From positions 48,632-112,631 of IMG/VR virus record IMGVR_UViG_3300045988_116681: a stretch of DNA of 64,000 nt. The stretch is one strand, 5' to 3'. Origin of the DNA: a virus. The notes under the pieces are model-generated. The model was not told the origin of the DNA, did no database searches, and was given only the letters and a program-made list of their open reading frames with translations. Shown here piece by piece: positions 9,082-63,951 of the stretch (its first letter is position 1; each line of letters opens with the position of its first letter). A program made the translations under genes and the position numbers.

Positions 9082-9854
9082 TTAATCATTATTATATTTT
9101 CCTCTCCACCTAAACAACTTCTCTGTTTTCTTAGGCTGATTATTCTTATTATAGTCAAGCGTTCTTCTCAATTCCTTTTCCCAGACAACTTCAAAATCGT
9201 CTGGCGCTTCTTGCTCGGAAATAAATACAATACATCTCTTAGAAAGTTCACGCATATATTCCCAAAATTCTTCGTGGTTAAAATCGCCAGTTGTATAACC
9301 AGTGGTTTTAGCATAAGGCGGGTCACAATATACAACCGCTCCATCTGGAATATCGACTTCACGATAATCAAGACAAGTAAAGTTGGCGTTTTGCACACCT
9401 TGTAAGTCACGAAGTAAGCTACGTTCCGCTCGGGCACAATAATTGTCACCTCGTTTATTACTTGCCAATCCACCAAACCACTTACCACCAAACGAACAGC
9501 CAAAACCAACAAAACCAGCTAACGCCTTATTCTCGTCTTTGTGCTCTTTGACGTAATAGTATTCTTCTTTAGTGATAATAGAAGGTGGTGTCCAGCCAGA
9601 TTGTAAGCCTTTCCACATTTCAATCAAATATGGATGTTTGTCATTAAGAATTTTGGTTTCTGCTTTTACTTTCGCTTCAACTGCACAAGACCCACAAAAC
9701 AGACTTACGAATGTCTGCCCCCCCCAAGTTCAAGGTGTGGTTGATAACTTGTGCAATCTGAGTTGAGATACGAGATTTTCCGCCCATGTATTGCATTGTT
9801 AATTACCTCCGAAATTTGTTTAGAAATACGAGATTTACCGCCTAAGTAACGCAT
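9082..9854 (-). CDS. Dam-like (D12 class) N6-adenine DNA methyltransferase, out of frame at a G8 tract in this assembly (candidate phase-variable gene)
   Basis: The body 9082..9627 carries DPPY. Upstream there are two ATGs (9854 and 9796), each encoding M(R/Q)Y(L/M)GGKSRIS... Motif I (FVSLFCGSCAV) is reached only with G7/G10 from ATG2 or G9 from ATG1. With G8 both reading frames stop. Confidence 0.8.
9718..9725 (-). repeat. G8 homopolymer in the 5' coding region of the Dam-like methyltransferase
   Basis: Counted C8 on the plus strand. Flanks read AACTT-G8-CAGACA on the sense strand. Confidence 0.95.
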
Positions 9855-9885
9855 ATAATCATCCTTTCATGTTGATGATTATATC

Positions 9886-10605
9886 TTATCTCATTTTAGT
9901 CGCTTTGTCAATACGCTCTTTGGCGATTTCAAAATAATTTTCATCAAGTTCCATACCGATAAAATTACGATTTGTATTGGCGCAAGCTACGCCTGTACTG
10001 CCAGACCCCATACAGTTGTCGAGAACGGTCATTCCTTCATTGGTATAGGTCTTAATTAGCCATTCAAGTAGGGCTACTGGCTTCTGTGTAGGATGAACAC
10101 GACTTGCGTCACGATTGAAAGAAAGAATAGACAACGGATTTCTTTCGCCGTTCTTGCTTTCGCTCCATGCTTGTTTTCTATCACCATAATTATCTGATAG
10201 CGAACCGTTCTTTGTACGAGTATAAGGCGTACTATACCAGAATTGCTTATTATATACTGGCTTTTTCTTATAGAAGATTGCAATTTCTTCATGAGACTTT
10301 AGTGGTTTTACATTGGCGTTAAGAAAATCACAGCCACGATTTTTATTCCAGACAAGATTATAACGCCACATCTTTGTGTTAGACAGCATAAGATTAGCCA
10401 TAAACAAGCCATCACAGAATAGAGCAATTACGCCATTGTTGGTGATGATACGATTGTACTGTTCCCACAACTTATCAAATGGAACAATCGTATCCCACTT
10501 ATTTTTGGTCGAGCCATAAGGCAAATCACATAGAATCATATCCACCGACTGGGGGGGGATATGGGGCATAAGTTCAAGGCAATCGCCATTCTTAATATCA
10601 ATCAT
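9886..10605 (-). CDS. DNA methyltransferase (N6_N4_Mtase family, beta class)
   Basis: DLPY follows the N-terminal domain. The C-terminus has VLDNCMGSGSTGVA (FxGxG-like) and IGMELDENY. Confidence 0.85.
   Translation of the reverse strand: MIDIKNGDCLELMPHIPPQSVDMILCDLPYGSTKNKWDTIVPFDKLWEQYNRIITNNGVIALFCDGLFMANLMLSNTKMWRYNLVWNKNRGCDFLNANVKPLKSHEEIAIFYKKKPVYNKQFWYSTPYTRTKNGSLSDNYGDRKQAWSESKNGERNPLSILSFNRDASRVHPTQKPVALLEWLIKTYTNEGMTVLDNCMGSGSTGVACANTNRNFIGMELDENYFEIAKERIDKATKMR
10551..10558 (+). repeat. G8 (C8 on the coding strand) homopolymer in codons 15-18 of the methyltransferase
   Basis: The coding strand reads CAT ATC CCC CCC CAG. The gene is in frame (ON) as assembled. Confidence 0.95.
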
Positions 10606-10633: not shown

Positions 10634-11155
10634 TTACTTCTTTTGAATTTCTTCAAAGACAATCTGCTTTGGTAGCATCTTATGGCATACATACACACTA
10701 CTGAAAGGTGGGTTAAGGCTGGGCTTCTGGTCTGCGTAGTCCTTGAAGTAAGCCACTCTGCGGTTAAGATACATGATTTCAAACTCATTGTTCTTAAACA
10801 TATCGAATCTTCGCTGAGATTCAAACAAGCCTACAACACCCACCAACATTGCGAACGGCTTGCCAATTTCAAACAGTCGTTCCAACACTTCTGTCTTGAC
10901 GCTATAAGGCGGATTGCTGATAATCATGTCGCACTGTGGTACTGGCGTTGTGAAAAAGTCCTGACCATTATCAATGTGCGTACAGATTACCTTGTTGCCC
11001 TGTGCTTTAAGCATTTTAACAAAGTGTGATTCTTCTGTGTCAAAAGGACACCATACTGTCAGTTGGGGGGGGGCGTAAACCAAGATAGGCTTGACCGCAT
11101 AGGGCGGTGTATAGAAGTTATCATTGCCAGAGCCAGCTACTTTATCCATTTTCAT
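10634..11155 (-). CDS. N6-adenine DNA methyltransferase (NPPY motif)
   Basis: Contains ISNPPYS and an N-terminal YTPP motif. ATG at 11155 follows GGAGAG. Confidence 0.75.
   Translation of the reverse strand: MKMDKVAGSGNDNFYTPPYAVKPILVYAPPQLTVWCPFDTEESHFVKMLKAQGNKVICTHIDNGQDFFTTPVPQCDMIISNPPYSVKTEVLERLFEIGKPFAMLVGVVGLFESQRRFDMFKNNEFEIMYLNRRVAYFKDYADQKPSLNPPFSSVYVCHKMLPKQIVFEEIQKK
11065..11073 (+). repeat. G9 (C9 on the coding strand) homopolymer in the 5' part of the NPPY methyltransferase
   Basis: The coding strand reads TAC GCC CCC CCC CAA. In frame as assembled. The plus-strand flanks GTCAGTT-G9-CGTAAAC resemble those of the tract at 25553. Confidence 0.95.
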
Positions 11156-24730: not shown

Positions 24731-25216
24731 TTATCTCAATCCGTAGATTGTTTGAATTACTGGTGCGGGGAAATGCTCTGTATCATATTGGGATAAATAT
24801 ACTTCGTCAAGTTTAACTGAAGAATCAAGCCTTGAAGTCGAATCACTGTAAATATTTCCTTGAGCATCATAAGCAAGACCTTGAATCACTGTGTTCCACC
24901 ATCTCCAAGAGGTCGTTCCAACACATTGTGTACATCTATTAAATGTCATACAAAAACTATTATCTTCAGTAAACAAATGATTGCCACGATACGAGTAAAT
25001 AAACAAATAATATGAGTTTGAAGTAAGAGCGACATATTGTAAAGCCACGCCCTTAGGTACAGTAACAACATTCATTACAGAAGCGTAAGAATCATAGTCA
25101 ACAAAATGTGAATAAGTGCCTGTGCTTGTGATTTCTCGCTGACCAATAATATTCCAACCCAATCCATTAGAAGCGGGTGGAGTATAAGCATCTGAAAGCA
25201 TTACTTTTGCGTTCAT
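24731..25216 (-). CDS. hypothetical 161-aa protein, downstream partner of B4
   Basis: ATG at 25216 (MNAKVML..) sits in an ATGA context. It is the end point of the stop-free -1 frame that runs across B4. Confidence 0.6.
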   Translation of the reverse strand: MNAKVMLSDAYTPPASNGLGWNIIGQREITSTGTYSHFVDYDSYASVMNVVTVPKGVALQYVALTSNSYYLFIYSYRGNHLFTEDNSFCMTFNRCTQCVGTTSWRWWNTVIQGLAYDAQGNIYSDSTSRLDSSVKLDEVYLSQYDTEHFPAPVIQTIYGLR

Positions 25217-25238
25217 GCTACCACCCCGCTTTCGGAGT

Positions 25239-25544
25239 TTAGTGGAATAATAGCACTTGGATTCCATACCAATTTGTGAGACAATTCAAAGTAATATCGT
25301 GTTCTGTTATGCTGACAACCATCCGATTTGCGTTTTGAGTATAAAAATAGCCTGATTGCACAAAGGTTTCTGCAACGTATTCTGTTGATAAAGAAGGATA
25401 CAAACTTCCGCTTACCACAATCATTTTCACAGGAGCGTTGAGAGGAATCACTTTGTTGATACCCTGCTCTAATTCCCCTATTTCGACTGTTGTTACTTGA
25501 AGTGCTGTACCTTCCAACATTTCCTTCATTACTTTTGCATCCAT
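25239..25544 (-). CDS. family B small protein (B4)
   Basis: MDAKVMKEMLEG... It is a paralog of the proteins at 32610, 34998 and 40870. Confidence 0.6.
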   Translation of the reverse strand: MDAKVMKEMLEGTALQVTTVEIGELEQGINKVIPLNAPVKMIVVSGSLYPSLSTEYVAETFVQSGYFYTQNANRMVVSITEHDITLNCLTNWYGIQVLLFH

Positions 25545-25552
25545 TACTTACG

Positions 25553-25559
25553 CCCCCCC
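25553..25559 (-). repeat. G7 homopolymer 8 nt upstream of the B4 ATG
   Basis: Sense strand reads TTCAGTT-G7-CGTAAGTA-ATG. Confidence 0.95.
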
Positions 25560-25611: not shown

Positions 25612-25656
25612 TCAACGTAAGCCCCCCCCCAGTGAAACAATGGTTTGGTTCTTCAT
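25612..25656 (-). CDS. leader ORF L6 (14 aa as assembled) containing a G9 tract
   Basis: AAGGAGG, 9 nt, then ATG. It translates to MKNQTIVSLGGGLR*, and the stop lies inside the hairpin GCTTACG-ttgagcg-CGTAAGC. Confidence 0.45.
   Translation of the reverse strand: MKNQTIVSLGGGLR
25622..25630 (-). repeat. G9 homopolymer in leader ORF L6
   Basis: Counted C9 on the plus strand. Confidence 0.95.
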
Positions 25657-32590: not shown

Positions 32591-32976
32591 GCAATCACCT
32601 CGTTTCTATTTAATAGAACGCTACTGCATAAGCCGAGTCTTTCCCTTGTAAATGGTCTATGGTCATTGTTTTGCCAGCGAATGTTACATCTATATAATCG
32701 TTTTCTGAGTTGGAGTCGGCATAATGGTAAGTTGTTGTTTGTTCGGAATAATAAATGCTTACTGAATATCCGTAATTGTATCCACTGGCAGAATAATACA
32801 TACTTAAAGAAACAAATTTCGGGACGTGAGAGAAAGTAAATTTTATTTCTTCGTTGTAGGCTTCTGCTTCTTTGTATTCCGCAGTTAAGCCTTGCACTTG
32901 TAAAGGCTCTCCCATAATCTTTCCGTTCATCTACTCTGCCCCCCCCAAGTCTCATTGAGGTTTGCATATTATACAT
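32587..32976 (-). CDS. leader ORF L2, which as assembled (G8) continues through all of B1 in the -1 frame and stops on the start codon of the A gene
   Basis: This is the same frame as track ORF 32587..33030. ATG at 32976 follows AAAGGA. Its TGA (32587-32589) overlaps ATG 32588-32590. Confidence 0.4.
   Translation of the reverse strand: MYNMQTSMRLGGGRVDERKDYGRAFTSARLNCGIQRSRSLQRRNKIYFLSRPEICFFKYVLFCQWIQLRIFSKHLLFRTNNNLPLCRLQLRKRLYRCNIRWQNNDHRPFTRERLGLCSSVLLNRNEVIA
32610..32930 (-). CDS. family B small protein (B1)
   Basis: MNGKIMGEPLQVQGLTAEYKE... A paralog of the 40870 protein (shared ..GLTAEY.. and ..VTF(A/S)GK.. segments). Confidence 0.65.
   Translation of the reverse strand: MNGKIMGEPLQVQGLTAEYKEAEAYNEEIKFTFSHVPKFVSLSMYYSASGYNYGYSVSIYYSEQTTTYHYADSNSENDYIDVTFAGKTMTIDHLQGKDSAYAVAFY
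32939..32946 (-). repeat. G8 homopolymer 8 nt upstream of the B1 ATG
   Basis: Sense strand reads GAGACTT-G8-CAGAGTAG-ATG. Confidence 0.95.
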
Positions 32977-33002
32977 ATTGCTCAAATTCCTTTCTGAGCA
33001 AT
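32977..33002. repeat. inverted repeat ATTGCTCA-10 nt-TGAGCAAT
   Basis: The TTGAGCAA motif in both orientations. The loop contains the leader SD. Confidence 0.8.
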
Positions 33003-33026
33003 GAGAAGGAGATGAAGGATAAAAAG

Positions 33027-33356
33027 TCAAGACAAAGTGCCTAATTCAAGATACTTAAAATAGGGTGAAATTGAATTATTATAATAGTTTTCAACCTTGA
33101 AATGCCCCTCCCCGAAATAGAACCACACCGCAGGACTATTTTCGCCAAAGGCACCATACGAGAACTCTATTACTTCCTTAAAAACACTCACTTTACCAAT
33201 CATTACGCTGTTGTCGGTCATCATCAACTTAAAATATAAACTCGCATCTGTTGTTGCAATTTTTACAACTGAGCTACCTTCTGCTACATCTTGATGAATA
33301 GCACTCTTAAAATGAATTGTTCCTTCTACACCCTTACCTGTTACAATCCCATCCAT
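33027..33356 (-). CDS. family A small protein
   Basis: MDGIVTGKG....LELGTLS. Confidence 0.65.
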   Translation of the reverse strand: MDGIVTGKGVEGTIHFKSAIHQDVAEGSSVVKIATTDASLYFKLMMTDNSVMIGKVSVFKEVIEFSYGAFGENSPAVWFYFGEGHFKVENYYNNSISPYFKYLELGTLS

Positions 33357-33406
33357 CAGCCGACACTTCCCTTCATGCCAGCCATCTCATTGCTCATATT
33401 AAATTT

Positions 33407-33469
33407 TAGGAGAATGCTAACGCATTGCCCCCCCCAACCGAAGTCAGGGTTGACTGAATGTTAAACATA
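33407..33469 (-). CDS. leader ORF L1 (20 aa as assembled)
   Basis: AAGGAGAA, 4 nt, then ATG. It translates to MFNIQSTLTSVGGGNALAFS*. Confidence 0.45.
33429..33436 (-). repeat. G8 homopolymer in L1
   Basis: Counted C8 on the plus strand. Confidence 0.95.
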
Positions 33470-33514
33470 ATGTTCTCCTTTTTGTGTAGTTATATTTGAG
33501 CAATGAGTAGAGGG

Positions 33515-33859
33515 TTATTCTAACAACCCAAAATCCACCGAGGAAATATACAAAGACAAATTATTATTGTTAAAACCAAAACCAACATATTCTATTCCTT
33601 CAGTATTAGTATAATCTATGCTAAACGAAGGAGAGTAGTCGCCTGAACTATTTCTAAAAGTAAAATAATTAGTACCTCTTAAAGTTTCATACTTAAAAAT
33701 GCTAATTTGTCCATATAAATCAACGATTTTAACATATGGCGCAATTCTGTCTACAAGAAAGTTAATATGGAACGTATTTAACGCATCGTCTTTATATGAT
33801 TTTTTACTCATGAATGTCAAAGCATTAGCAGTAAATGGCTTATTAACAATCCCATTCAT
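33515..33859 (-). CDS. family A small protein
   Basis: MNGIVNKPF....VDFGLLE. Confidence 0.65.
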   Translation of the reverse strand: MNGIVNKPFTANALTFMSKKSYKDDALNTFHINFLVDRIAPYVKIVDLYGQISIFKYETLRGTNYFTFRNSSGDYSPSFSIDYTNTEGIEYVGFGFNNNNLSLYISSVDFGLLE

Positions 33860-33969
33860 ACAGTCACCTGCTTTCGGTGACTCACATTGCTCAAATATTC
33901 AGTTGTTAGGGAGTTATTGCCCCCCCCCAAGTGAAGCATAAGTTCACTCAGAGAAAACTTGATACGCAT
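33856..33969 (-). CDS. leader ORF L3 (37 aa), terminating in ATGA on the start of the A gene
   Basis: AAGGAGTG SD. It translates to MRIKFSLSELMLHLGGGNNSLTTEYLSNVSHRKQVTV*. Its TGA overlaps ATG 33859. Confidence 0.5.
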   Translation of the reverse strand: MRIKFSLSELMLHLGGGNNSLTTEYLSNVSHRKQVTV

Positions 33970-34003
33970 GGTATCACTCCTTGTTGTTTAATTGAGCAAC
34001 GTG
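33883..34003. repeat. 12-bp inverted repeats (1 mismatch) CACATTGCTCAA / TTGAGCAACGTG flanking leader L3
   Basis: Arms at 33883-33894 and 33992-34003. Confidence 0.8.
33920..33928 (-). repeat. G9 homopolymer in L3
   Basis: Counted C9 on the plus strand. Confidence 0.95.
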
Positions 34004-34013
34004 TGTGATGTGA

Positions 34014-34415
34014 TTAGGATTTTAAGGCAAGCGCTAAATAGAAGCGAGTACCATCTTGGACATTATTTTTGAACAATCGGCATATTATACCAGTATTGAT
34101 AATGTTAAAATCACAATAATAAATATCGCTTGTTCCATTTGTAGTACCCGTTTTATATATTTTAGAACTTAATAAAACATGATTGCTTGTACTGCCACCT
34201 ATAACATCAGCCTTATACTCATATATAGATAGACACGGTGAAGCATAGTACCACGCATTGTCACAACCAATAAGCAAAAGCTTGCAACTATTGTGCGATT
34301 CTTCGTACCAATATAGTATCTGAAATTGTTCACTGGTAGCTTCTGCGGTGATAATATCATCAACATTGATACTTATGTCAGCCAGTTCAGCCAGCTTATT
34401 CACAATCCCATTCAT
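34014..34415 (-). CDS. family A small protein
   Basis: MNGIVNKLAEL... ATG at 34415; the track ORF begins at the GTG one codon earlier. Confidence 0.65.
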   Translation of the reverse strand: MNGIVNKLAELADISINVDDIITAEATSEQFQILYWYEESHNSCKLLLIGCDNAWYYASPCLSIYEYKADVIGGSTSNHVLLSSKIYKTGTTNGTSDIYYCDFNIINTGIICRLFKNNVQDGTRFYLALALKS

Positions 34416-34493
34416 CACATGACCCCCTTACTTGCGTATAGGAGGTTGCCAATCCTGTTGCTCAAAGGAAAGGCGTTAATGACCATTAGAAGG

Positions 34494-34532
34494 TCAGAAG
34501 AACGCCCCCCCCAAGTTAAAGCGAAGGTTCAT
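34494..34532 (-). CDS. leader ORF L4 (12 aa as assembled)
   Basis: AAAGGAGAA SD. It translates to MNLRFNLGGAFF*. Confidence 0.4.
   Translation of the reverse strand: MNLRFNLGGAFF
34505..34512 (-). repeat. G8 homopolymer in L4
   Basis: Counted C8 on the plus strand. Confidence 0.95.
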
Positions 34533-34588
34533 AATTTTGTTCTCCTTTGTTTAATTTTGAGCAACATTAGATGGGTGGTTAGATTGAT

Positions 34589-34978
34589 TTATCCAAACAC
34601 ATAATAATGAACGTTTTTTATTTTGCCACTTTGATTATTCAAATGAAAAGTTATTTTATTGTTTGAATAATCATAGTTCAAATTTTCTATGTCTATAGAA
34701 GAATATCGCACATAAGTTGGGTTGTCACCATCATATTCATAAAGTCTATATGAAAACCCCGAAGTTGAGTTGAGTGGAATCATTTGAACAAATTGCGCTC
34801 TAATTAACATAGATGACGGATTTGGAATAACCACTACTGCCATCGCTTGTGCGTCTATTGGCAATGATTGAAAATCAAAAATAGGAAGTGATACTTCATG
34901 AATGTTACTTGAATAACTACCTTCAAATGAAAAACACTTGTTTTGATTTACAAGTACAGGATTCACGATACCATTCAT
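34589..34978 (-). CDS. family A small protein (partner of B3)
   Basis: MNGIVNPVL... ATG at 34978 in a TGATG context. Confidence 0.65.
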   Translation of the reverse strand: MNGIVNPVLVNQNKCFSFEGSYSSNIHEVSLPIFDFQSLPIDAQAMAVVVIPNPSSMLIRAQFVQMIPLNSTSGFSYRLYEYDGDNPTYVRYSSIDIENLNYDYSNNKITFHLNNQSGKIKNVHYYVFG

Positions 34979-34997
34979 CAAGCCACCCCCTTGAGGG

Positions 34998-35309
34998 TCA
35001 GCCTAAGAATGTCACCAATAAGGGGTCGCTTACGTTGTTGTATTCTATCCGAACAGTGCCAACAGAATAACGAACTATCTGCACTCTTGCTGAAGTAACA
35101 CTTTGGTCTATTAAATATAATTTGTCTGCCGAAAGTAAAGGTAAATAAATCATTGCACCTATCAACGCACTTATGTTGTCTACACTTATTGTGCAAAATA
35201 AAGGTGTTACATCGAAGCCAAAAGTTAGCCCTCTGGTAATGGATTTTGCTTGCAATACTTTTAACCCGCTCATGGATTTTTCTACTTCTTGAATAATCTT
35301 TCCATCCAT
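34998..35309 (-). CDS. family B small protein (B3)
   Basis: MDGKIIQEVEKSM... ATG at 35309 in a TAATG overlap with leader L5. Confidence 0.6.
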   Translation of the reverse strand: MDGKIIQEVEKSMSGLKVLQAKSITRGLTFGFDVTPLFCTISVDNISALIGAMIYLPLLSADKLYLIDQSVTSARVQIVRYSVGTVRIEYNNVSDPLLVTFLG

Positions 35310-35410
35310 TAGTACGCCCACCTCTCTTGTTGCTCAACCGAGAGGTAATCATCGGTGGGCTTACTTGGCGTATGCCCCCCCCAGTGACGGGGAGTTTTAG
35401 TCTTAATCAT
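35309..35410 (-). CDS. leader ORF L5 (33 aa), terminating TAATG on the B3 start
   Basis: GGAGAA SD. It translates to MIKTKTPRHWGGHTPSKPTDDYLSVEQQERWAY*. Confidence 0.45.
   Translation of the reverse strand: MIKTKTPRHWGGHTPSKPTDDYLSVEQQERWAY
35375..35382 (-). repeat. G8 homopolymer in L5
   Basis: Counted C8 on the plus strand. Confidence 0.95.
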
Positions 35411-40487: not shown

Positions 40488-40847
40488 TTATTGTAAAGTT
40501 CCAACTGCGATTTTGGAAAGTATACTATTTATTTGTATATTGGCATTGATTTGTACAAAATTAGCATTTATATAATATTGTGTGCCTACATAAATTTCTG
40601 CTATACCTCCCCAATTATCACTGTAAAAACGAATTGTGGTATAATTTGAAGATTGCAGTGTGCTAAGTTGTAACATAACACTACTATCATAAATTCCATA
40701 AATTATTATATATTTTTCTTTATGGTTTTCTTCTTGCATAATAGAAGTGGTATAACGACTTGAAGTTACTTCAGACAAATCATAATATTCTTCAGCCACA
40801 AAAGAAACATCAGACAGAACAGGCGATTGCGCGATAATTGCATTCAT
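40488..40847 (-). CDS. family A small protein (partner of B2)
   Basis: MNAIIAQSP....IAVGTLQ. SD GAGGTGA. ATGA context. Confidence 0.65.
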   Translation of the reverse strand: MNAIIAQSPVLSDVSFVAEEYYDLSEVTSSRYTTSIMQEENHKEKYIIIYGIYDSSVMLQLSTLQSSNYTTIRFYSDNWGGIAEIYVGTQYYINANFVQINANIQINSILSKIAVGTLQ

Positions 40848-40869
40848 GCAATCACCTCATTTCTGGCGG

Positions 40870-41193
40870 TTAGAAGAAGCCTACTGCAAAAACCTTGCTT
40901 GCACTGACTGAAGATAATTCTATATTTTTCCCAGAAAATGTTACATAAAATGAATTGGTTTGTGAACCTTCCAAAGCGTAATACACATAGCAATTGTCTG
41001 GAAACCATGCTATATTCACGCTGTATGCTGCGTTTGAAGTGTACCTTTGAGGACTCCAAAGTGTTAGGCTTACAAAACTCGGCGCTTGGGAAAAAGAAAG
41101 CGTGACTTCTTGTTGATGGACTTCTTCTTCGAGATACTCTGCCGTCAGCCCGTTTTCCTGCTCCACAAATTCCTTCATTACTTTTGCGTTCAT
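40870..41193 (-). CDS. family B small protein (B2)
   Basis: MNAKVMKEFVEQENGLTAEY... Confidence 0.65.
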   Translation of the reverse strand: MNAKVMKEFVEQENGLTAEYLEEEVHQQEVTLSFSQAPSFVSLTLWSPQRYTSNAAYSVNIAWFPDNCYVYYALEGSQTNSFYVTFSGKNIELSSVSASKVFAVGFF

Positions 41194-41201
41194 TTAATCT
41201 G

Positions 41202-41209
41202 CCCCCCCC
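41202..41209 (-). repeat. G8 homopolymer 8 nt upstream of the B2 ATG
   Basis: Sense strand reads GCGAGTT-G8-CAGATTAA-ATG. Confidence 0.95.
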
Positions 41210-41243: not shown

Positions 41244-41294
41244 TCACCGTGTAAGCCCCCCCCAAGTGAAACGGAGGTTTGGTAAATTGAACAT
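41244..41294 (-). CDS. leader ORF L7 (16 aa as assembled)
   Basis: AAAGGAGGA SD. It translates to MFNLPNLRFTWGGLTR*. Confidence 0.45.
   Translation of the reverse strand: MFNLPNLRFTWGGLTR
41256..41263 (-). repeat. G8 homopolymer in L7
   Basis: Counted C8. Followed by the hairpin GCTTAC-acggtgat-GTAAGC. Confidence 0.95.
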
Positions 41295-47652: not shown

Positions 47653-48912
47653 TTACATTTTTATTGTTTGAATCATTTGCGTAGTTCTTGCTGTAATTCT
47701 TTTACATCTTTGGAGTTTTGGTGTTTTATATCCTCTTGGCAAATAAGAAAAATTAAGACGGTTTCCTTCAAAATCCATTAAAACGACTTGCCCTTGTATA
47801 CCTCTACCTTTAATATAACATTCTACTCCAAAATATCTGACTTTATCAAATTTTCTGAACCCGTTAATTTTTGTTGTGGTTATACGCCTTTCAGACCGAA
47901 CACCTTTTGTTTGCTGAAAGTCGCCTTCGGGAACACATTTCTTTTTATAAAGATTGGTATTTATTGTAAAATTTTTACCTTGTGTCGCTATTACGCAAGC
48001 ATCATAATAATGTTCTTTATCCACTTTTAATTGCAAACGATTAAACTTAGTAATATATCCATAAGTCTCTATTGCTTGCGGATATAATCTAAAAAGCTGT
48101 GTTCGTATACTATTCATTTGAGTGGCAAATTTGAGAACACCTTTCGCTTTTCCTTCTTGCTTGAGAATTATTTTCCCATTGTGTAATTTTTTATGACAAG
48201 TATGACAGAGAGTTATCAGATTGTTTTCTTCGTCAGACCCACCTTGGCTACGAAAAATTATATGATGAACTTCCAATCTTTTATCTTTATGTTTATTTTT
48301 ACAATATTGACAAGTATAGTTATCACGATTAAGCACCTTTGCTTTTGTGTTTTCAAACCCATAATTGACTCCTTTTTGATACCCCCAATGTCGAATTTCA
48401 GCGTTAGCAAGCAAAGGGTTTTTCAACAAATGAGTATCAAATTGGCTTGTTTCAAATACTATTTCAGAAATAGGCAAAATACTTTTAATAAATTCTATTT
48501 CTTTCACATGACTATACAATTTACTTACCATTGTTGGGCTAAACCGATTTTTTCTAAAAGAGTTAGCACGATTTAACCATCTTGGTTTTCTATAACGAGT
48601 TTTACGACTTCTTCTGTTTCTACGATAAGAAGCTCTACGAGTCATTTTATTAGTAATATTATTTCTTACTATTACTTCTGACATATATACTATCTTTCCC
48701 TTATCCGTAGCCACAGCCGTACCAAAAGTTCCGCTTCCAGTATCAACACCCAAAGTCAATTTTTGAATATAATTTGTAGAATCGTTAAGCAGTTTAATCG
48801 TAAAAGGTTCACGCCTTTTTACTTTTGCTTTACCTTGTTTAAGTAATAATCTTGCAATTACATTTGTGCAAGGCATTAAGGGCTTGTTGTTTTTAGAAAC
48901 TACATAAACCAT
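47653..48912 (-). CDS. iscB: IscB RNA-guided nuclease (PLMP, split RuvC, HNH)
   Basis: KPLMPC (PLMP), LGVDTGSGTFG (RuvC-I), Arg-rich bridge helix RRASYRRNRRSRKTRYRKPRW, EIVFETSQFD (RuvC-II), CQYC..HHIIFRSQGGSDEENNLITLCHTCH (HNH), HYYDACVIA (RuvC-III). Confidence 0.9.
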   Translation of the reverse strand: MVYVVSKNNKPLMPCTNVIARLLLKQGKAKVKRREPFTIKLLNDSTNYIQKLTLGVDTGSGTFGTAVATDKGKIVYMSEVIVRNNITNKMTRRASYRRNRRSRKTRYRKPRWLNRANSFRKNRFSPTMVSKLYSHVKEIEFIKSILPISEIVFETSQFDTHLLKNPLLANAEIRHWGYQKGVNYGFENTKAKVLNRDNYTCQYCKNKHKDKRLEVHHIIFRSQGGSDEENNLITLCHTCHKKLHNGKIILKQEGKAKGVLKFATQMNSIRTQLFRLYPQAIETYGYITKFNRLQLKVDKEHYYDACVIATQGKNFTINTNLYKKKCVPEGDFQQTKGVRSERRITTTKINGFRKFDKVRYFGVECYIKGRGIQGQVVLMDFEGNRLNFSYLPRGYKTPKLQRCKRITARTTQMIQTIKM

Positions 48913-49169
48913 GATAAGTCTCCTTATAAATACTCTGTCTTATGACAGGTGATGCGTACTTTGTCTCACTATTACCATGAGATTGTTCCGACTTCAACTC
49001 GACAATGATATAAAGGCTTTTAAGTATATATCACAAGGCTATGCTTACTCTGACCTAACTTAAATATATACGATAGAGCGATGGTCTGTTGCGTCAACCA
49101 AAGGTATCATGACCTAAATATCGTAGCTATTATTTCTAATAACTAAGTCTGGCAGACTGTTTAACAGAA
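48913..49169 (-). ncRNA. candidate omegaRNA of IscB
   Basis: A structured non-coding stretch lying directly upstream of iscB, the position where omegaRNAs are encoded. I cannot confirm the fold by eye. Confidence 0.45.
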
Positions 49170-49254
49170 GCCCACCACTCTTAATTGAGAGGTGGGCGGT
49201 CTGCGGAGGTGAAAACCATGAAAAGCAAACGCCTTTCTTATGGCACGATATGGG

Positions 49255-49329
49255 TGGAGCGCTATGGCGTAATCGAAACGCCATCTTCAGTTTGGAAAAC
49301 TGAGGTTCTTACCATTAAACTAATAGCGC
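49255..49329 (-). tRNA. tRNA-Gly(UCC)
   Basis: Manual fold: acceptor GCGCTAT/ATAGCGC, anticodon arm TCAGT-ttTCCaa-ACTGA, T arm GGCGT-ttcgatt-ACGCC, discriminator U, encoded CCA. Confidence 0.8.
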
Positions 49330-49445
49330 AAATCGCCCCGCGACCTAAAGGTACATCATGCGCGCTTGACTTGTTTTCCACTGGGAATCGCAGTACAGTC
49401 ATGGGCTAAACCGCAATAAGCGTGAACTTAACAAACGGGGAACAC

Positions 49446-49519
49446 TGGTGGGAACGGAAAGAATCGAACTTTCAATTTCTGAGTCAAAGTCAGAAGTTAT
49501 ACCATTTAACTACGCTCCT
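49446..49519 (-). tRNA. tRNA-Gln(UUG)
   Basis: Anticodon arm TCTGA-ctTTGac-TCAGA, T arm GAAAG-ttcgatt-CTTTC, 1:72 mismatch, encoded CCA. Confidence 0.75.
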
Positions 49520-49675
49520 ATATTTCTCCTACGATGACGGGTCGCAGGAGAGAAATTAAATTGTATGCCGACACGTTTGAGCGTGTCTATTAAATTGTTT
49601 GTCTGCCGTACCAGACGATGTGTGTGAGTGGAGTTTTTGCTCACGGACATAAAATTTACCTTGTACGGAAGGCAT

Positions 49676-49751
49676 TGGTCTACCATCGCAGGCTCGAACT
49701 GCGGACTTCTTGATTAAAAGTCAAGTGCTCTACCAACTGAGCTAATGGTAG
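49676..49751 (-). tRNA. tRNA-Lys(UUU)
   Basis: Acceptor CTACCAT/ATGGTAG, D arm GCTC..GAGC, anticodon arm CTTGA-ctTTTaa-TCAAG, T arm CGCAG-ttcgagc-CTGCG, encoded CCA. Confidence 0.85.
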
Positions 49752-49778
49752 ATTTGATTGGGGCATATGCCCCATCAT

Positions 49779-49883
49779 TTATCGCAGATTGTAACGGTCT
49801 ACACCGCGCATATTCTTCTGCATCTCAAGGTTTGCTTCATACAAACCTCTGAAAAAATGCTTGATATTGTTCTTAACGCCCAT
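49779..49883 (-). CDS. small ORF (34 aa) at the head of the tRNA operon
   Basis: AAAGGAAGTGA SD. It translates to MGVKNNIKHFFRGLYEANLEMQKNMRGVDRYNLR*, followed by the hairpin GGGGCATATGCCCC. Confidence 0.35.
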   Translation of the reverse strand: MGVKNNIKHFFRGLYEANLEMQKNMRGVDRYNLR

Positions 49884-49913
49884 TGGTTTCACTTCCTTTC
49901 TGATTACTTTAGT

Positions 49914-49942
49914 ATTATATCACATAACAACTAAGTTGTCAA
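49914..49942 (-). promoter_or_regulatory. sigma-A-type promoter (tRNA operon)
   Basis: TTGACA-17-TATAAT. Confidence 0.7.
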
Positions 49943-50549
49943 GTGCTTTTTTAACTTTATTTTTCATTTCTTCTCGCTCTTTCTTGGAGTCATATCTCAT
50001 ACGACAATAAGGGCGAGTGCCTTCTCTGTAGTGTTTCTGCAAAATTCGTATTTGCTTATTTACCATTTCTTTAGAAACATCTAACTTATCAGCCACTTCT
50101 TGACACGTTTTACATTCTGTCAGCTTTGCGTATATGACTTTAAGCATAGCAGTTGAAGCGTACTCAATAAACCAATAAGCCCAATCTTTGCCAACGATAT
50201 ATTCTTCATTCTTTGCGCCACTGTCAATAACAGCTTCAAGCGGTACATCTTCATTATAGACGGTTTTAACTTCGCTGTTCAATGAAATAACACGACTGTC
50301 ATTGCGCTTCTTTGCTGATTGAGTTCGTTTTGCTTTTTTTACTTCATTGTGCATACAGTAATAAGCAAATGTACTAAAGCGGTTACTGCCATCATAAGCC
50401 ATACCAGCCTTGCACAAACCAATAGCACAAACATCATACCATGTGCTGAAGTCAAGTTTATACTTTGTCAAGAAGCCGTAGATTAAATCGTGATTATCTT
50501 CGACTAATTTCTTCTGCTCAGTATTTAATTTGATAATTGGCTTGCTCAT
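49920..50549 (-). CDS. phage-encoded sigma-70-family sigma factor
   Basis: Region 2-like LVEDNHDLIYGFL..FSTFAYYCMHNEV and a region 4 HTH, CQEVADKLDVSKEMVNKQI. ATG at 50549 lies below the tRNA gene. Confidence 0.75.
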   Translation of the reverse strand: MSKPIIKLNTEQKKLVEDNHDLIYGFLTKYKLDFSTWYDVCAIGLCKAGMAYDGSNRFSTFAYYCMHNEVKKAKRTQSAKKRNDSRVISLNSEVKTVYNEDVPLEAVIDSGAKNEEYIVGKDWAYWFIEYASTAMLKVIYAKLTECKTCQEVADKLDVSKEMVNKQIRILQKHYREGTRPYCRMRYDSKKEREEMKNKVKKALDNLVVM

Positions 50550-50577
50550 AACAGTTGTTTCCTTTAGTTTGAAATAA

Positions 50578-50652
50578 TGGAGCGCCACATCAGAATCGAA
50601 CTGACGTTTCCAGTTTGGGAAACTGGTGTACTAACCACTGTACGAGTGGCGC
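50578..50652 (-). tRNA. tRNA-Gly(CCC)
   Basis: Acceptor GCGCCAC/GTGGCGC, anticodon arm CCAGT-ttCCCaa-ACTGG, T arm GTCAG-ttcgatt-CTGAT, discriminator U, encoded CCA. Confidence 0.8.
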
Positions 50653-50657
50653 ATATG

Positions 50658-50723
50658 ATAACAGGGAATGAGTTAGAAAGAAGGTATGTCAAAAGAAGGA
50701 GAAAAAATCTCATTCCCTGTTAT
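50658..50723. repeat. perfect 15-bp inverted repeat with a 36-nt loop, abutting the 5' end of the tRNA
   Basis: ATAACAGGGAATGAG...CTCATTCCCTGTTAT. Confidence 0.8.
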
Positions 50724-50749
50724 TTACTTATGTTTATTATGCTTAGAAG

Positions 50750-50887
50750 TTATCGCTTAAACTTCGGCAGAAGATTATGATTTGCGTCCTCAAGCATATT
50801 CTGCACTGCAAGGTCGTACTTCTGCTTCTCGGTCATAGGCTTGTTCTTCTTTTCATTTTCCTTTGCTCGGCGGTTATTCTTTGCCAT
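50750..50887 (-). CDS. small basic protein (45 aa)
   Basis: My own translation gives MAKNNRRAKENEKKNKPMTEKQKYDL.., directly downstream of the 3D-domain gene. Confidence 0.4.
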   Translation of the reverse strand: MAKNNRRAKENEKKNKPMTEKQKYDLAVQNMLEDANHNLLPKFKR

Positions 50888-50909
50888 TTTCGTTTCGTTC
50901 CTTTCAAAA

Positions 50910-51563
50910 TCAGTTTACAAGGTATACATTTCTATATTGAACTCCCCAACTATCTGCTTGACCATAGCCAACCAGTAAGTCGAAGCGATTCGACCCTTTA
51001 ATTGCCCCTCCACAATCCTGCGCCGACACATATCCTACACCTTCGATATAGAACTTTGTGCCATATCGCCAATAGGATGGGTCAATAGCTACAATAGACC
51101 ACTCATTACCAGCAAGGCTACGACCTGTTGCTGTCAATGTGCTACCGCCATTCTCTGACGGACTTGGCGTATATGCAGTAATTTTGAACTTCCCAAGTGG
51201 AGTCATAGACGGCTTTTGAGCCTTCTTCTTAGCTTCTTCTTCAGCCTTACGCTTTGCTTCAGCTTCGCGTTCAGCCTTGAGAGCCTTGTTATAATCTTCT
51301 GTTAGTGCTACTACGGTTTCATTATGTTCATCCCACTTATCCTTGGCATGAAGAATAATGTAATCGTCCTCTTCTGCTCCCAAAGTTCTTGCACATTCAG
51401 CAAGCTGGTGAGCAGTGTTTCGCATTGTGATTGCTTCATCGAGATTGGATTTAATCTCCGCACTTGTTTGCGTCTGGCTTGAAGCAAAAGCCGATGTAGA
51501 AAGACATACACCAACCATCACTACGGTAGCGAAACTTTTTGTTAGTTTGTTTCCAAACTGCAT
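50910..51563 (-). CDS. secreted 3D-domain (RlpA-like double-psi barrel) cell-wall hydrolase
   Basis: Signal peptide, a coiled linker, and a C-terminal ITAYTPSPSENGG..TATG..VAIDP..GTKFYIEGVGY..AQDCGGAIKG 3D-domain pattern. Confidence 0.75.
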   Translation of the reverse strand: MQFGNKLTKSFATVVMVGVCLSTSAFASSQTQTSAEIKSNLDEAITMRNTAHQLAECARTLGAEEDDYIILHAKDKWDEHNETVVALTEDYNKALKAEREAEAKRKAEEEAKKKAQKPSMTPLGKFKITAYTPSPSENGGSTLTATGRSLAGNEWSIVAIDPSYWRYGTKFYIEGVGYVSAQDCGGAIKGSNRFDLLVGYGQADSWGVQYRNVYLVN

Positions 51564-51718
51564 TGGTATCGCGTCCTTTCGCTTATTTTGGTTTTTGTTT
51601 TAGCCCTTTTGGGCTGGTGGTTCGGGTGAATCCTGACATCACAATCTGCGGTTATGAGCCGCATCGTTTTCCTTTAGCGTACCGAACCATATATCGAGGG
51701 CGTATTGCCCTCAGTATT
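51564..51718 (-). promoter_or_regulatory. structured 5' leader; candidate (variant) c-di-AMP ydaO-type riboswitch
   Basis: Long-range stem GGUUCGG..CCGAACC. GGUACG and AUUCACCCGAACCACCAGC...CUAA..AAUAAGCG resemble the conserved 3' half of ydaO. The downstream gene class fits the known ydaO regulon. The 5'-half motifs were not found. Confidence 0.3.
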
Positions 51719-51796
51719 TTACTTGGTGCTGTGACGCTTGGTGCAGTCACCATAGCACCATTCTTCAAAGTCTACTGACTTATCATACTGATACAT
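51719..51796 (-). CDS. upstream small ORF (25 aa) in the leader
   Basis: GAAGGAGGT, 6 nt, then ATG. It translates to MYQYDKSVDFEEWCYGDCTKRHSTK*. Confidence 0.4.
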   Translation of the reverse strand: MYQYDKSVDFEEWCYGDCTKRHSTK

Positions 51797-51824
51797 AACC
51801 TTACCTCCTTCGTTTCACTTAAAC

Positions 51825-51853
51825 ATTGTATCGCAACCTTTCGCCGTTGTCAA
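51825..51853 (-). promoter_or_regulatory. sigma-A-type promoter
   Basis: TTGACA-17-TACAAT. Confidence 0.7.
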
Positions 51854-52129
51854 GTATGATTTTTAATTTGATATTGCGTACTACTGCAAGAAGCGAAACG
51901 AAATTTGTTCTTGTCTCTGTTTATACGCCGCCCATTTCATACGCTATATCATTAACGTGCCCTAAAACCGTATCACTCAGGCACTTTGAATTTCCCCACA
52001 CATCCGTTCACGCACTCTGGCGTTACAGAACTTACCATTGCACCTCGGATAGTACAACTACGACTATCAGTTCCGATGCTGACAGTATGAAATTCGTTAC
52101 CGTTTTTTTCTGCGAGTAAATCGCTGTGT

Positions 52130-52201
52130 TTGACTTCGCAGGACTCGAACCTGTAATTCACTTGCTTTCGCAAAGCGTGTTCCCTATTACACCATCAGTC
52201 A
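52130..52201 (-). ncRNA. tRNA-like element without a canonical anticodon loop
   Basis: It has a T arm (ACAGG-ttcgagt-CCTGC), a D arm (GTGT..ACAC with GG) and a 5-bp acceptor plus tandem G.A pairs. The anticodon position is an extended hairpin with a 3-4 nt loop (GCUUU-gcg-AAAGC). No CCA is encoded. Confidence 0.4.
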
Positions 52202-52321
52202 ATATAAACCGTCTTTATTCATCAAACCTGAAGCCACAGGTAACGGTTATGATGATTATTTTTGAAAGGAGTCGTGCTTCTGGTAGTAATAGAAGCACAT
52301 GAAAAATGAAAAAGATGTGGT

Positions 52322-52407
52322 TGGTCGCCCAACTGGGGGTCGAACCCAGACGCTTTTCAGCAACGGATTTTGAATCCGCATCGTATACCAAATTCCGGCA
52401 TTGGGCG
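52322..52407 (-). tRNA. tRNA-Leu(CAA), type II with a long variable arm
   Basis: Acceptor CGCCCAA/TTGGGCG, anticodon arm GCGGA-ttCAAaa-TCCGT, variable arm GCTGAAAAGC, T arm CTGGG-ttcgacc-CCCAG, encoded CCA. Confidence 0.75.
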
Positions 52408-63591: not shown

Positions 63592-63951
63592 TTATTCGAG
63601 CGTTCCTATTTCAATAGATGTATAATAATCATTTAGATTTAAGCGATTTTGGTCATTATCGTACATTGTTATATTTACATAACTATTATCGGTAGATCTC
63701 TTGAATCGCGTCCAAACCGTATTATTATAAGGCTCTGGATAGAAGCAAAACCAATACTTATTAGCAGTTGGGTCAGTACAGAAAGCGCAAATAATAGAAA
63801 TTAAATTGTTTTTTGTCACAACTTTAATATACTTATTAATTATGTTTGTATAAAAAGTATAATCTGTATTATATAAATCTGCTGTTTGTTCAGTCTTAAA
63901 CACCAAACTTCCCTCTGGCTTTTCAATCTTACCAACAACAATAGCATTCAT
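63592..63951 (-). CDS. family A small protein
   Basis: MNAIVVGKIEKPEG....IEIGTLE. ATG at 63951 in a TGATG context. Confidence 0.65.
   Translation of the reverse strand: MNAIVVGKIEKPEGSLVFKTEQTADLYNTDYTFYTNIINKYIKVVTKNNLISIICAFCTDPTANKYWFCFYPEPYNNTVWTRFKRSTDNSYVNITMYDNDQNRLNLNDYYTSIEIGTLE

Follow-up and report, generated by a model that had tools for sequence, protein, structure and literature searches.

A putative three-state, phase-variable Dam-family methylase gene with a duplicated, out-of-frame N-terminus in a phage of gut or rumen Clostridia

A gene for an orphan N6-adenine DNA methylase of the T4 Dam family, located on the minus strand at positions 9,082–9,854 of a 64,000-nucleotide stretch of viral DNA (positions 48,632–112,631 of the IMG/VR record IMGVR_UViG_3300045988_116681; the whole stretch is hereafter called the window), very probably constitutes a three-state simple sequence repeat (SSR) contingency locus. 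The gene opens with two tandem copies of one N-terminal module, each with its own start codon (ATG1 and ATG2), followed by a homopolymeric tract of eight guanines (G8) and by the methylase body. The length of the tract modulo three picks the start that is joined to the body, namely ATG1 for a remainder of 0, ATG2 for a remainder of 1 and neither for a remainder of 2 (Table 1). A three-state phase-variable design of this kind had been proposed in an initial annotation made from the nucleotide sequence, and it is now supported by natural alleles with tracts of G6 to G10, by selection acting on both N-terminal copies and by wide conservation among relatives.

The tandem duplication is present as annotated, with ATG1 at 9854 and ATG2 at 9796; the distance of 58 nt equals 1 modulo 3, so that the frames of the two starts differ. 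Copy 1 encodes MRYLGGKSRISKQISEVIN and copy 2 encodes MQYMGGKSRISTQIAQVIN, the two being identical at 41 of 58 nucleotides and 14 of 19 amino acids and sharing the Dam-family motif M-x-Y-x-GGKSRI. A Shine-Dalgarno (SD)-like AAAGGA lies 7 nt upstream of ATG1, and the SD of ATG2 is indeed found within copy 1, where the Glu-Val codons of the latter form a GGAGG 9 nt upstream of ATG2. Read in the frame of ATG1, the DNA of copy 2 becomes a linker, NAIHGRKISYLNSDCTSYQPHLEL. The G8 tract starts 71 nt after ATG2 and codes for Gly-Gly(-Gly) in the loop preceding strand beta-1, a position that is likely to tolerate changes in length. As assembled, the gene is OFF: the open reading frame (ORF) from ATG1 encodes MRYLGGKSRISKQISEVINNAIHGRKISYLNSDCTSYQPHLELGGGRHS and ends at a TAA, the ORF from ATG2 encodes MQYMGGKSRISTQIAQVINHTLNLGGADIRKSVLWVLCS and ends at a TGA, and a further TGA, in the body frame and immediately 5' of the tract, means that no upstream start can enter the body frame at G8. 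In silico translation reproduced the predicted joins of ATG2 with G7 or G10 and of ATG1 with G9, and also yielded one of ATG1 with G6, giving full-length proteins of 237–257 aa.

In the proposed mechanism, slipped-strand mispairing at the G tract during replication would shift the tract length by single bases, and the essential N-terminal motif would be available in two frames, each with a ribosome-binding site of its own. At G6 or G9, ATG1 would be joined to the body to give a long isoform, in which copy 1 provides the motif and copy 2 forms a loop of ~20 residues; at G7 or G10, ATG2 would be joined to give the canonical short enzyme; and at G8 no enzyme with motif I would be made from either start. 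A slip in either direction from the OFF state would bring the enzyme back, while an ON state would be lost by a slip in one direction alone, and hence the two-frame design would double the productive frames and make reactivation independent of the direction of the slip. Switching is expected to be frequent and reversible within a population and both isoforms are expected to be active, the purpose possibly being bet-hedging across hosts of opposite restriction behaviour, some cutting DNA that lacks methylation and others DNA that carries it. The design thus predicts two isoforms, and the duplicated, frame-shifted N-terminus would be a compact way to place a frameshift switch 3' of residues that the enzyme needs.

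Alleles of this very gene exist with five tract lengths, all of which share identical flanks and have products that fit the predicted frames. G8, which joins neither start, is found in seven assemblies (the window, L001, L002 and L111–L114) that are independent of one another in sample and pipeline, while G6 (L118) and G9 (L115) join ATG1, and G7 (L117) and G10 (L116) join ATG2. Length polymorphism therefore toggles the frame among otherwise identical alleles, as in a contingency locus. The initial annotation had allowed for a tract that is in truth G7 or G10 everywhere; because G8 recurs in seven assemblies and the other lengths are found between the same flanks, an assembly error can be dismissed as the source of G8. 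By exact-sequence look-up, the product of ATG1 with G9 in the window (257 aa) is identical to the public protein P0121, the 90% cluster of which contains ATG1-type proteins of 253–257 aa, ATG2-type proteins of 233 and 236 aa, and truncated calls of 174–180 aa that match OFF alleles.

A search over 5.8 billion proteins returned 2,767 relatives, which fall into two length classes of ~231 aa and ~250–256 aa, the long class being genes that are read from the upstream N-terminal copy across the second, out-of-frame copy. DNA was taken for 80 IMG/VR loci (the best 80 of 240 by tblastn score, a ranking that favours unbroken genes) and for 30 loci from bacterial genomes. The dual design was present in 65 related phage and prophage loci at 50–93% protein identity, including prophages of Ruminococcus sp. 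YE282, Flintibacter muris (DSM 110149) and Acutalibacter caecimuris (M00118), and relatives of the methylase were found in genomes of Ruminococcus, Oscillospiraceae and other Clostridia. Two copies were found in 45 of 81 loci (the 80 from IMG/VR and the window), and a repeat tract directly precedes motif I in 43 of these 45, compared with 12 of the 36 single-copy loci (Fisher p = 1e-9, with kinship ignored). An SD-like motif precedes ATG1 in 26 of 33 unique dual loci, and ATG2 is preceded by GGAGG, GGAG or GGGG in 24 of the 33. Dating of the duplication was attempted by comparing copies 1 and 2 within and between loci and returned identities of 0.70, 0.69, 0.65 and 0.63, the peptide being too constrained for the purpose.

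The repeat at the tract site differs in kind as well as in length among these relatives, with polyG (G7–G13) at the majority of loci, (GA)n at several and (AT)8 at a single one, so that the residues encoded there are GG, RERE or YIYI. All states of the switch are represented: in the IMG/VR set, ATG2 is in frame in 27 loci, ATG1 in 9, neither (OFF) in 6 and both in 1, while 11 of 20 genome-assembly loci are OFF, 4 have ATG1 and 2 have ATG2 in frame, and the OFF share thus differs by collection (6/43 vs 11/20). A change of state can be followed among close relatives, as L008 with (GA)8 is ON and L020 with (GA)7 is OFF. In a group of near-identical loci with two polyG tracts, L062, L065 and L066 (G8+G8) have ATG2 in frame, while L070 (G8+G7), L074 (G8+G10) and L079 (G11+G7) have ATG1 in frame, and the choice of start differs through tract length alone. 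The second polyG lies between the N-terminal copies, ~75–190 nt 5' of the motif-I codons for FVSLFCG, and was seen in L021, L062, L065–L068, L070, L071, L074, L075, L079, L083, L086–L088, L093, L100, L102 and L103; as a consequence, the relative frame of the two starts is itself variable in these loci, and some of the alleles read both copies in tandem and in frame.

The variety of repeats at this site bears on the possibility that recoding occurs at the RNA level, by transcriptional slippage or ribosomal frameshifting on G8 that yields full-length enzyme, with the tract tuning expression and the two starts acting as a buffer. Long homopolymers can cause both polymerase and ribosome slippage, the phage carries a tRNA-Gly(CCC) that reads GGG, and recoding would be compatible with G8 as the common consensus. 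However, length variants exist in the DNA and obey the frame model, and the (GA)n or (AT)n repeats that occupy the same site in relatives are not ribosomal slippery sites. The tract does not resemble a programmed frameshift site, being length-polymorphic in DNA and replaced by (GA)n or (AT)n in homologues, although downstream structure was not specifically tested. RNA-level recoding is hence considered unlikely as the explanation of the locus, and it is not mutually exclusive with the three-state contingency locus; some leaky expression from G8 by slippage on RNA may still occur.

Whether the upstream start contributes to a working enzyme is addressed by the pattern of substitution in the two copies. 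The ratio of non-synonymous to synonymous polymorphism (pN/pS) in the own frame is 0.27 for copy 1 (36 unique sequences) and 0.28 for copy 2 (39 unique sequences), as opposed to 1.25–2.2 in the other frames (1.25–2.1 for copy 1), third-position entropy is highest in both copies, and neither copy varies at Y3, G5, G6, K7 or I10. The starts of 42 unique single-tract loci are spaced by 55, 58 or 67 nt without exception, each equal to 1 modulo 3, and the ATG1 and ATG2 frames are each open up to the tract in 41 of these loci, the third frame in none. Across copy 2, the ATG1 frame is open in 29 of 30 unique dual genes, as against 8 of 31 for the same frame over the first 19 codons of single-start genes (chance ~0.27; p = 5e-9). 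Because copy 1 is under own-frame purifying selection and the ATG1 frame has been kept open across copy 2, copy 1 appears to be translated as part of a working methylase rather than to be a scar, for which this evidence is indirect but strong. The use of ATG1, which the initial annotation had assumed, also gains support from the natural ATG1-in-frame alleles. In an AlphaFold2 model of a natural long isoform (P0001; predicted template modelling score 0.83), the copy-1 helix (residues 7–22) has a predicted local distance difference test (pLDDT) value of ~92, strand beta-1 starts at residue 47, and the out-of-frame linker derived from copy 2 (residues 28–44) is a loop with pLDDT below 50; as the model is alignment-driven, it speaks for the plausibility of the long isoform and is not proof.

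These data also weigh on a plain ON/OFF switch, in which active enzyme is made from ATG2 alone, copy 1 is an upstream ORF (uORF) or leader or gives an inactive or interfering product, and G6 and G9 are OFF. Such a switch would fit the insertion of ~20 residues, modelled as disordered, between helix and beta-1 of the long isoform, the stronger SD at ATG2 in the window (GGAGG vs AAAGGA) and the excess of ATG2-in-frame over ATG1-in-frame alleles in the IMG/VR set (27 vs 9). A leader, however, needs no methylase motif, yet five residues of the motif are invariant in copy 1, which is as constrained as copy 2 and the frame of which has been selected to stay open exactly to the tract. Moreover, ATG1-type products are at least as frequent as ATG2-type products in the lineage of the window, and ATG1 prevails by 4 to 2 in the genome assemblies. 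A switch that works from ATG2 alone is therefore regarded as distinctly unlikely.

The homopolymer content of the window indicates that tracts of this length are not accidental. At a G+C content of 38.8%, 12 G/C runs of at least 8 nt are observed and 0.135 are expected from first-order Markov simulations, and the lengths of the G/C runs are bimodal (10 runs of 5 nt, none of 6, 1 of 7, 9 of 8 and 3 of 9). A/T runs end at 7 nt, with none of at least 8 nt vs 13.9 expected. The 5' coding repeat of the methylase gene is thus longer than chance would allow, as in contingency loci, and the distribution as a whole suggests slippage-prone replication together with selection against accidental tracts and for placed G/C runs of 8–9 nt. 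The T-Gn-C flanks common to the tracts of the window were considered as a DNA or RNA signal and rejected for the methylase, where the flanks vary among relatives; no Rfam family was found at any tract of the window. Shared flanks would suit a scheme of mutational buffering, in which some other role of the tract, such as that of a glycine-rich loop or DNA signal, accounts for its retention and the duplicate start merely limits the damage done by slippage, and two starts do, as a matter of logic, lift the in-frame fraction from 1/3 to 2/3. Against this stand the variable flanks, the different repeat units and residues at the same site in relatives, and the 24 of 36 single-copy relatives that keep an intact enzyme with neither tract nor duplication; in addition, dual starts are tightly tied to tracts, and A/T runs of at least 8 nt have been purged genome-wide while G/C runs of 8–9 nt have been kept at the 5' ends of genes. 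Buffering as the reason for the design is very unlikely. Finally, a homopolymer error of sequencing or assembly (with a true G7 or G10), or a dead gene with copy 1 as a decaying recombination scar, could be suspected since errors classically arise in homopolymers, both frames are broken by G8 and the closest lineage is most often OFF, but this is contradicted by the recurrence of G8 in assemblies of differing samples and pipelines, the existence of G6, G7, G9 and G10 alleles, the open frame of copy 1 and its selection as strong as that on copy 2, and the conservation of the design at 50–93% identity, which leaves it scarcely any credence.

The protein repaired in silico matches the Pfam profile PF02086 (MethyltransfD12) with 73.6 bits (cut-off 22) and an E-value of 2.8e-20, which places it in the D12 class of N6-adenine DNA methylases. 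The AdoMet-binding motif I (FxGxG) and the catalytic motif IV (DPPY) occur in the order of the alpha class, and both are invariant in 21–68 homologues. The best solved relative is T4 Dam (E = 5.9e-6), followed by Escherichia coli Dam (PDB entries for the two enzymes: 1yf3, 1q0s, 2g1p); the enzymes belong to the same fold family and have the N-terminal Y-x-G-x-K, the FxGxG of motif I and DPPY in common, but sequence identity to the methylase of the window is low and the classical enzymes have neither a repeat tract nor a second start. The description as Dam-like in the initial annotation thus holds for family and fold, whereas GATC-type specificity is doubtful because the window contains 1 GATC (at 63695) vs 168 expected. 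GATC had been the likely target and was searched for throughout the window, where it is nearly absent; methylation of GATC would be nearly irrelevant to the phage DNA, a GATC assay would probably be uninformative there, and the term Dam-like should be read as denoting the fold family and not the specificity. Avoidance of restriction sites in the window is extreme in general, with observed/expected counts of 0/110 for CTAG, 2/89 for GGCC, 6/55 for CCGG, 1/41 for GCAGC, 0/18 for GGACC, 0/19 for CCAGG and 0/20 for CGACG, and many 6-bp palindromes are missing. Among the scanned proteins near the methylase there is no nuclease or res domain, the neighbours being two further methylases and small ORFs. 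A megablast search of GenBank phages with the locus gave no match, and the protein search gave no cultured phage above 47% identity, hence there is no annotated reference.

Several points weigh against a three-state contingency locus. The benefit of methylation to the phage is unclear in view of the near-absence of GATC from the window, and the activity of the long isoform is deduced solely from selection and the alignment-driven model. The OFF allele is the consensus, with G8 in 7 of 11 close assemblies, which could equally mean that the gene is usually dispensable, and all of the length variation observed lies between assemblies. Furthermore, the loci compared are phylogenetically related, so that the Fisher tests overstate their independence, and a recognisable SD before ATG2 is absent in 8 of the 33 unique dual loci.

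Starts in more than one frame are, as the initial annotation had pointed out, known from bacterial contingency genes, and the nearest functional precedent is licA of the lic1 locus of Haemophilus influenzae, where a (CAAT)n tract switches translation and two of the three frames have an initiation codon (PMC2212159). Like licA, the methylase gene has a 5' coding repeat with starts in two frames upstream of it, both leading into the same body, the repeat number sets the phase and one frame in three is OFF. The residues 5' of the repeat in licA are, however, not a duplicated functional motif, whereas here an essential motif is encoded twice and copy 2 also serves, out of frame, as a linker; the repeat unit is one or two nucleotides long, and the gene encodes a DNA methylase on a phage replicon. 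Phasevarions, as outlined in the articles cited, are governed by phase-variable Type III mod methylases in Haemophilus, Neisseria, Moraxella, Streptococcus suis and Actinobacillus (PMC2667262, PMC5909438, PMC10123105), and they share with the present gene the switching of an N6-adenine DNA methylase by slippage of an in-frame repeat. In contrast to the Type III mods, which are chromosomal, have a res partner and are simply ON or OFF, the enzyme described here is an orphan D12/T4-Dam-family phage protein with two out-of-frame starts and three states; it thus works like a phase-variable methylase, but its D12 class and the lack of a res among the scanned proteins set it apart from Type III mod/res systems. 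In phages, polyG tracts in receptor-binding genes of Campylobacter Fletchervirus (Sorensen, 2021), repeat tracts in T2 and T4 and a polyG in the methylase gene of Bordetella phage BPP-1 are listed in a recent preprint (bioRxiv 10.1101/2025.10.21.683753). The likeness lies in hypermutable homopolymers in phage genes that give mixed progeny, with BPP-1 as one earlier polyG in a phage methylase among the cases that the preprint lists.

No description of duplicated out-of-frame N-termini, of three switched methylases side by side, of a family-wide conserved design or of coupling between a uORF and a polyG (see below) was found in the literature, the coverage of which was incomplete, so that this is weak evidence of novelty for both designs. 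Phase-variable methylases are known as bacterial tools and phage contingency loci have been recognised lately; the present design is conserved and evidently selected in uncultured phages and prophages of gut and rumen Clostridia, for which isolate genomes and metagenomic G6–G10 alleles are available as experimental handles.

Table 1. Features of the methylase gene and of other parts of the window.
Feature	Position	Strand	Basis or remark
SD-like AAAGGA upstream of ATG1	9862–9867	minus	Direct sequence reading
Copy 1 of the N-terminal module (ATG1 at 9854–9852)	9797–9854	minus	Sequence and own-frame purifying selection
GGAGG, SD of ATG2	9806–9810	minus	Sequence
Copy 2 of the N-terminal module (ATG2 at 9796–9794)	9739–9796	minus	Sequence
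TGA in body frame, just 5' of tract	9730–9732	minus	Sequence
G8 homopolymer tract	9718–9725	minus	Starts 71 nt after ATG2
TAA closing the ATG1 frame at G8	9705–9707	minus	ORF 9705–9854
TGA closing the ATG2 frame at G8	9677–9679	minus	ORF 9677–9796
Methylase body, including stop codon	9082–9717	minus	PF02086 match; T4 Dam closest solved relative
Motif I, FVSLFCGSC	9711–9685	minus	Within methylase body
DPPY	9324–9313	minus	Within methylase body
N6/N4 methylase (PF01555), 5' C8 tract at 10558–10551	9886–10605	minus	Pfam match
Third methylase (NPPY), C9 tract at 11073–11065	10634–11155	minus	Weak EcoRI-methylase-family match
G tracts of leader units (i)	25553–25559, 25622–25630, 32939–32946, 33428–33435, 33920–33928	minus	
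G tracts of leader units (ii)	34505–34512, 35375–35382, 41202–41209, 41256–41263	minus	
Leader ATGs	25656, 32976, 33468, 33969, 34532, 35410, 41294	minus	
Eleven small paralogues	24731–25544, 32610–35309, 40488–41193, 63592–63951	minus	
RRXRR + HNH protein, 419 aa	47653–48912	minus	
HEARO RNA	48987–49204	minus	Rfam RF02033, 86.8 bits
tRNA cluster: Gly(TCC), Gln(TTG), Lys(TTT), Gly(CCC), Leu(CAA)	49255–52407	minus	

The Dam-family gene is one of three orphan methylase genes in a row, and the 5' G/C tract of each of them differs between relatives. The adjacent gene, for an N6/N4 methylase (PF01555), has possible starts at ATG 10605, TTG 10601 and, in another frame, ATG 10589; its C8 tract uses ATG 10605 (239 aa), and C9 in L002 brings the frame of ATG 10589 into phase. 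Public products of 239 aa, of 238 and 234 aa, and of 217 aa reflect the different states of the tract; those of 238 and 234 aa belong to that other frame and begin with MILRMAIALNLCPISPPQSVDM, and for those of 217 aa the start is the internal codon Met23, 3' of the tract. In the third gene, the C9 tract lies ~28 codons after the ATG and is in frame in the window and in L111–L114, while the relative L001 has C8 and is out of frame. Across the three adjacent methylases the phage may randomise its own epigenetic coat, and progeny of mixed methylation would be a hedge against both kinds of restricting host. In virome annotation, a methylase called as frameshifted or truncated, like the 174–180-aa and 217-aa products in this case, need be neither an error nor a pseudogene and can represent a state of the switch.

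The G8 tract of the Dam-family gene is one of 13 G/C tracts, a wider set that also takes in those of both neighbouring methylases and those of seven leader-ORF units. Each of the seven units consists of a strong SD, a leader ORF of 7–14 codons and a G8 or G9 tract. Depending on the unit, one or two of the three length classes place the stop codon of the leader on or directly beside the ATG of the small paralogue that follows (TGATG, ATGA, TAGATG, TAATG), and in three units another class reads ~130–150 codons across that paralogue in an alternative frame and stops on the ATG of the gene after it (32590, 34978, 40847). The geometry is kept in the relatives L119–L122 with differing tract lengths, and base pairing is higher in the ribosome-binding zones of the leader-unit genes than in the zones of controls (0.69 vs 0.50; p = 0.01). 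From these arrangements, the leader units may represent phase-variable translational coupling. It is a real, if tentative, possibility that the virus has a genome-wide phasome, with at least 13 tracts in 64 kb, in which the twice-encoded motif of the methylase gives two isoforms that possibly differ in activity and the leader units are a new coupling switch that chooses the paralogues to be expressed.

The small paralogues number eleven, are 101–161 aa long and start with M-(N/D)-(G/A)-(I/K)-(V/I). They have no Pfam match, and their homologues are confined to this phage lineage. An AlphaFold2 model of the paralogue at 32610–32930 predicts a confident all-beta fold of eight strands (pLDDT 86), with no significant match in the PDB (best E = 0.03).

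In the ~113-kb genome of this phage of gut or rumen Clostridia, the window forms the replication and early region; it encodes a DNA polymerase, RecJ, a primase, DnaB, Sak4 and a RecD-like helicase. It also contains a HEARO RNA adjoined by a 419-aa protein with RRXRR and HNH domains, which together are an IscB/omega-RNA (OMEGA) element inside the phage genome. The nearby cluster of five tRNA genes includes the tRNA-Gly(CCC), and the GGG codon that it reads is made by every polyG tract.

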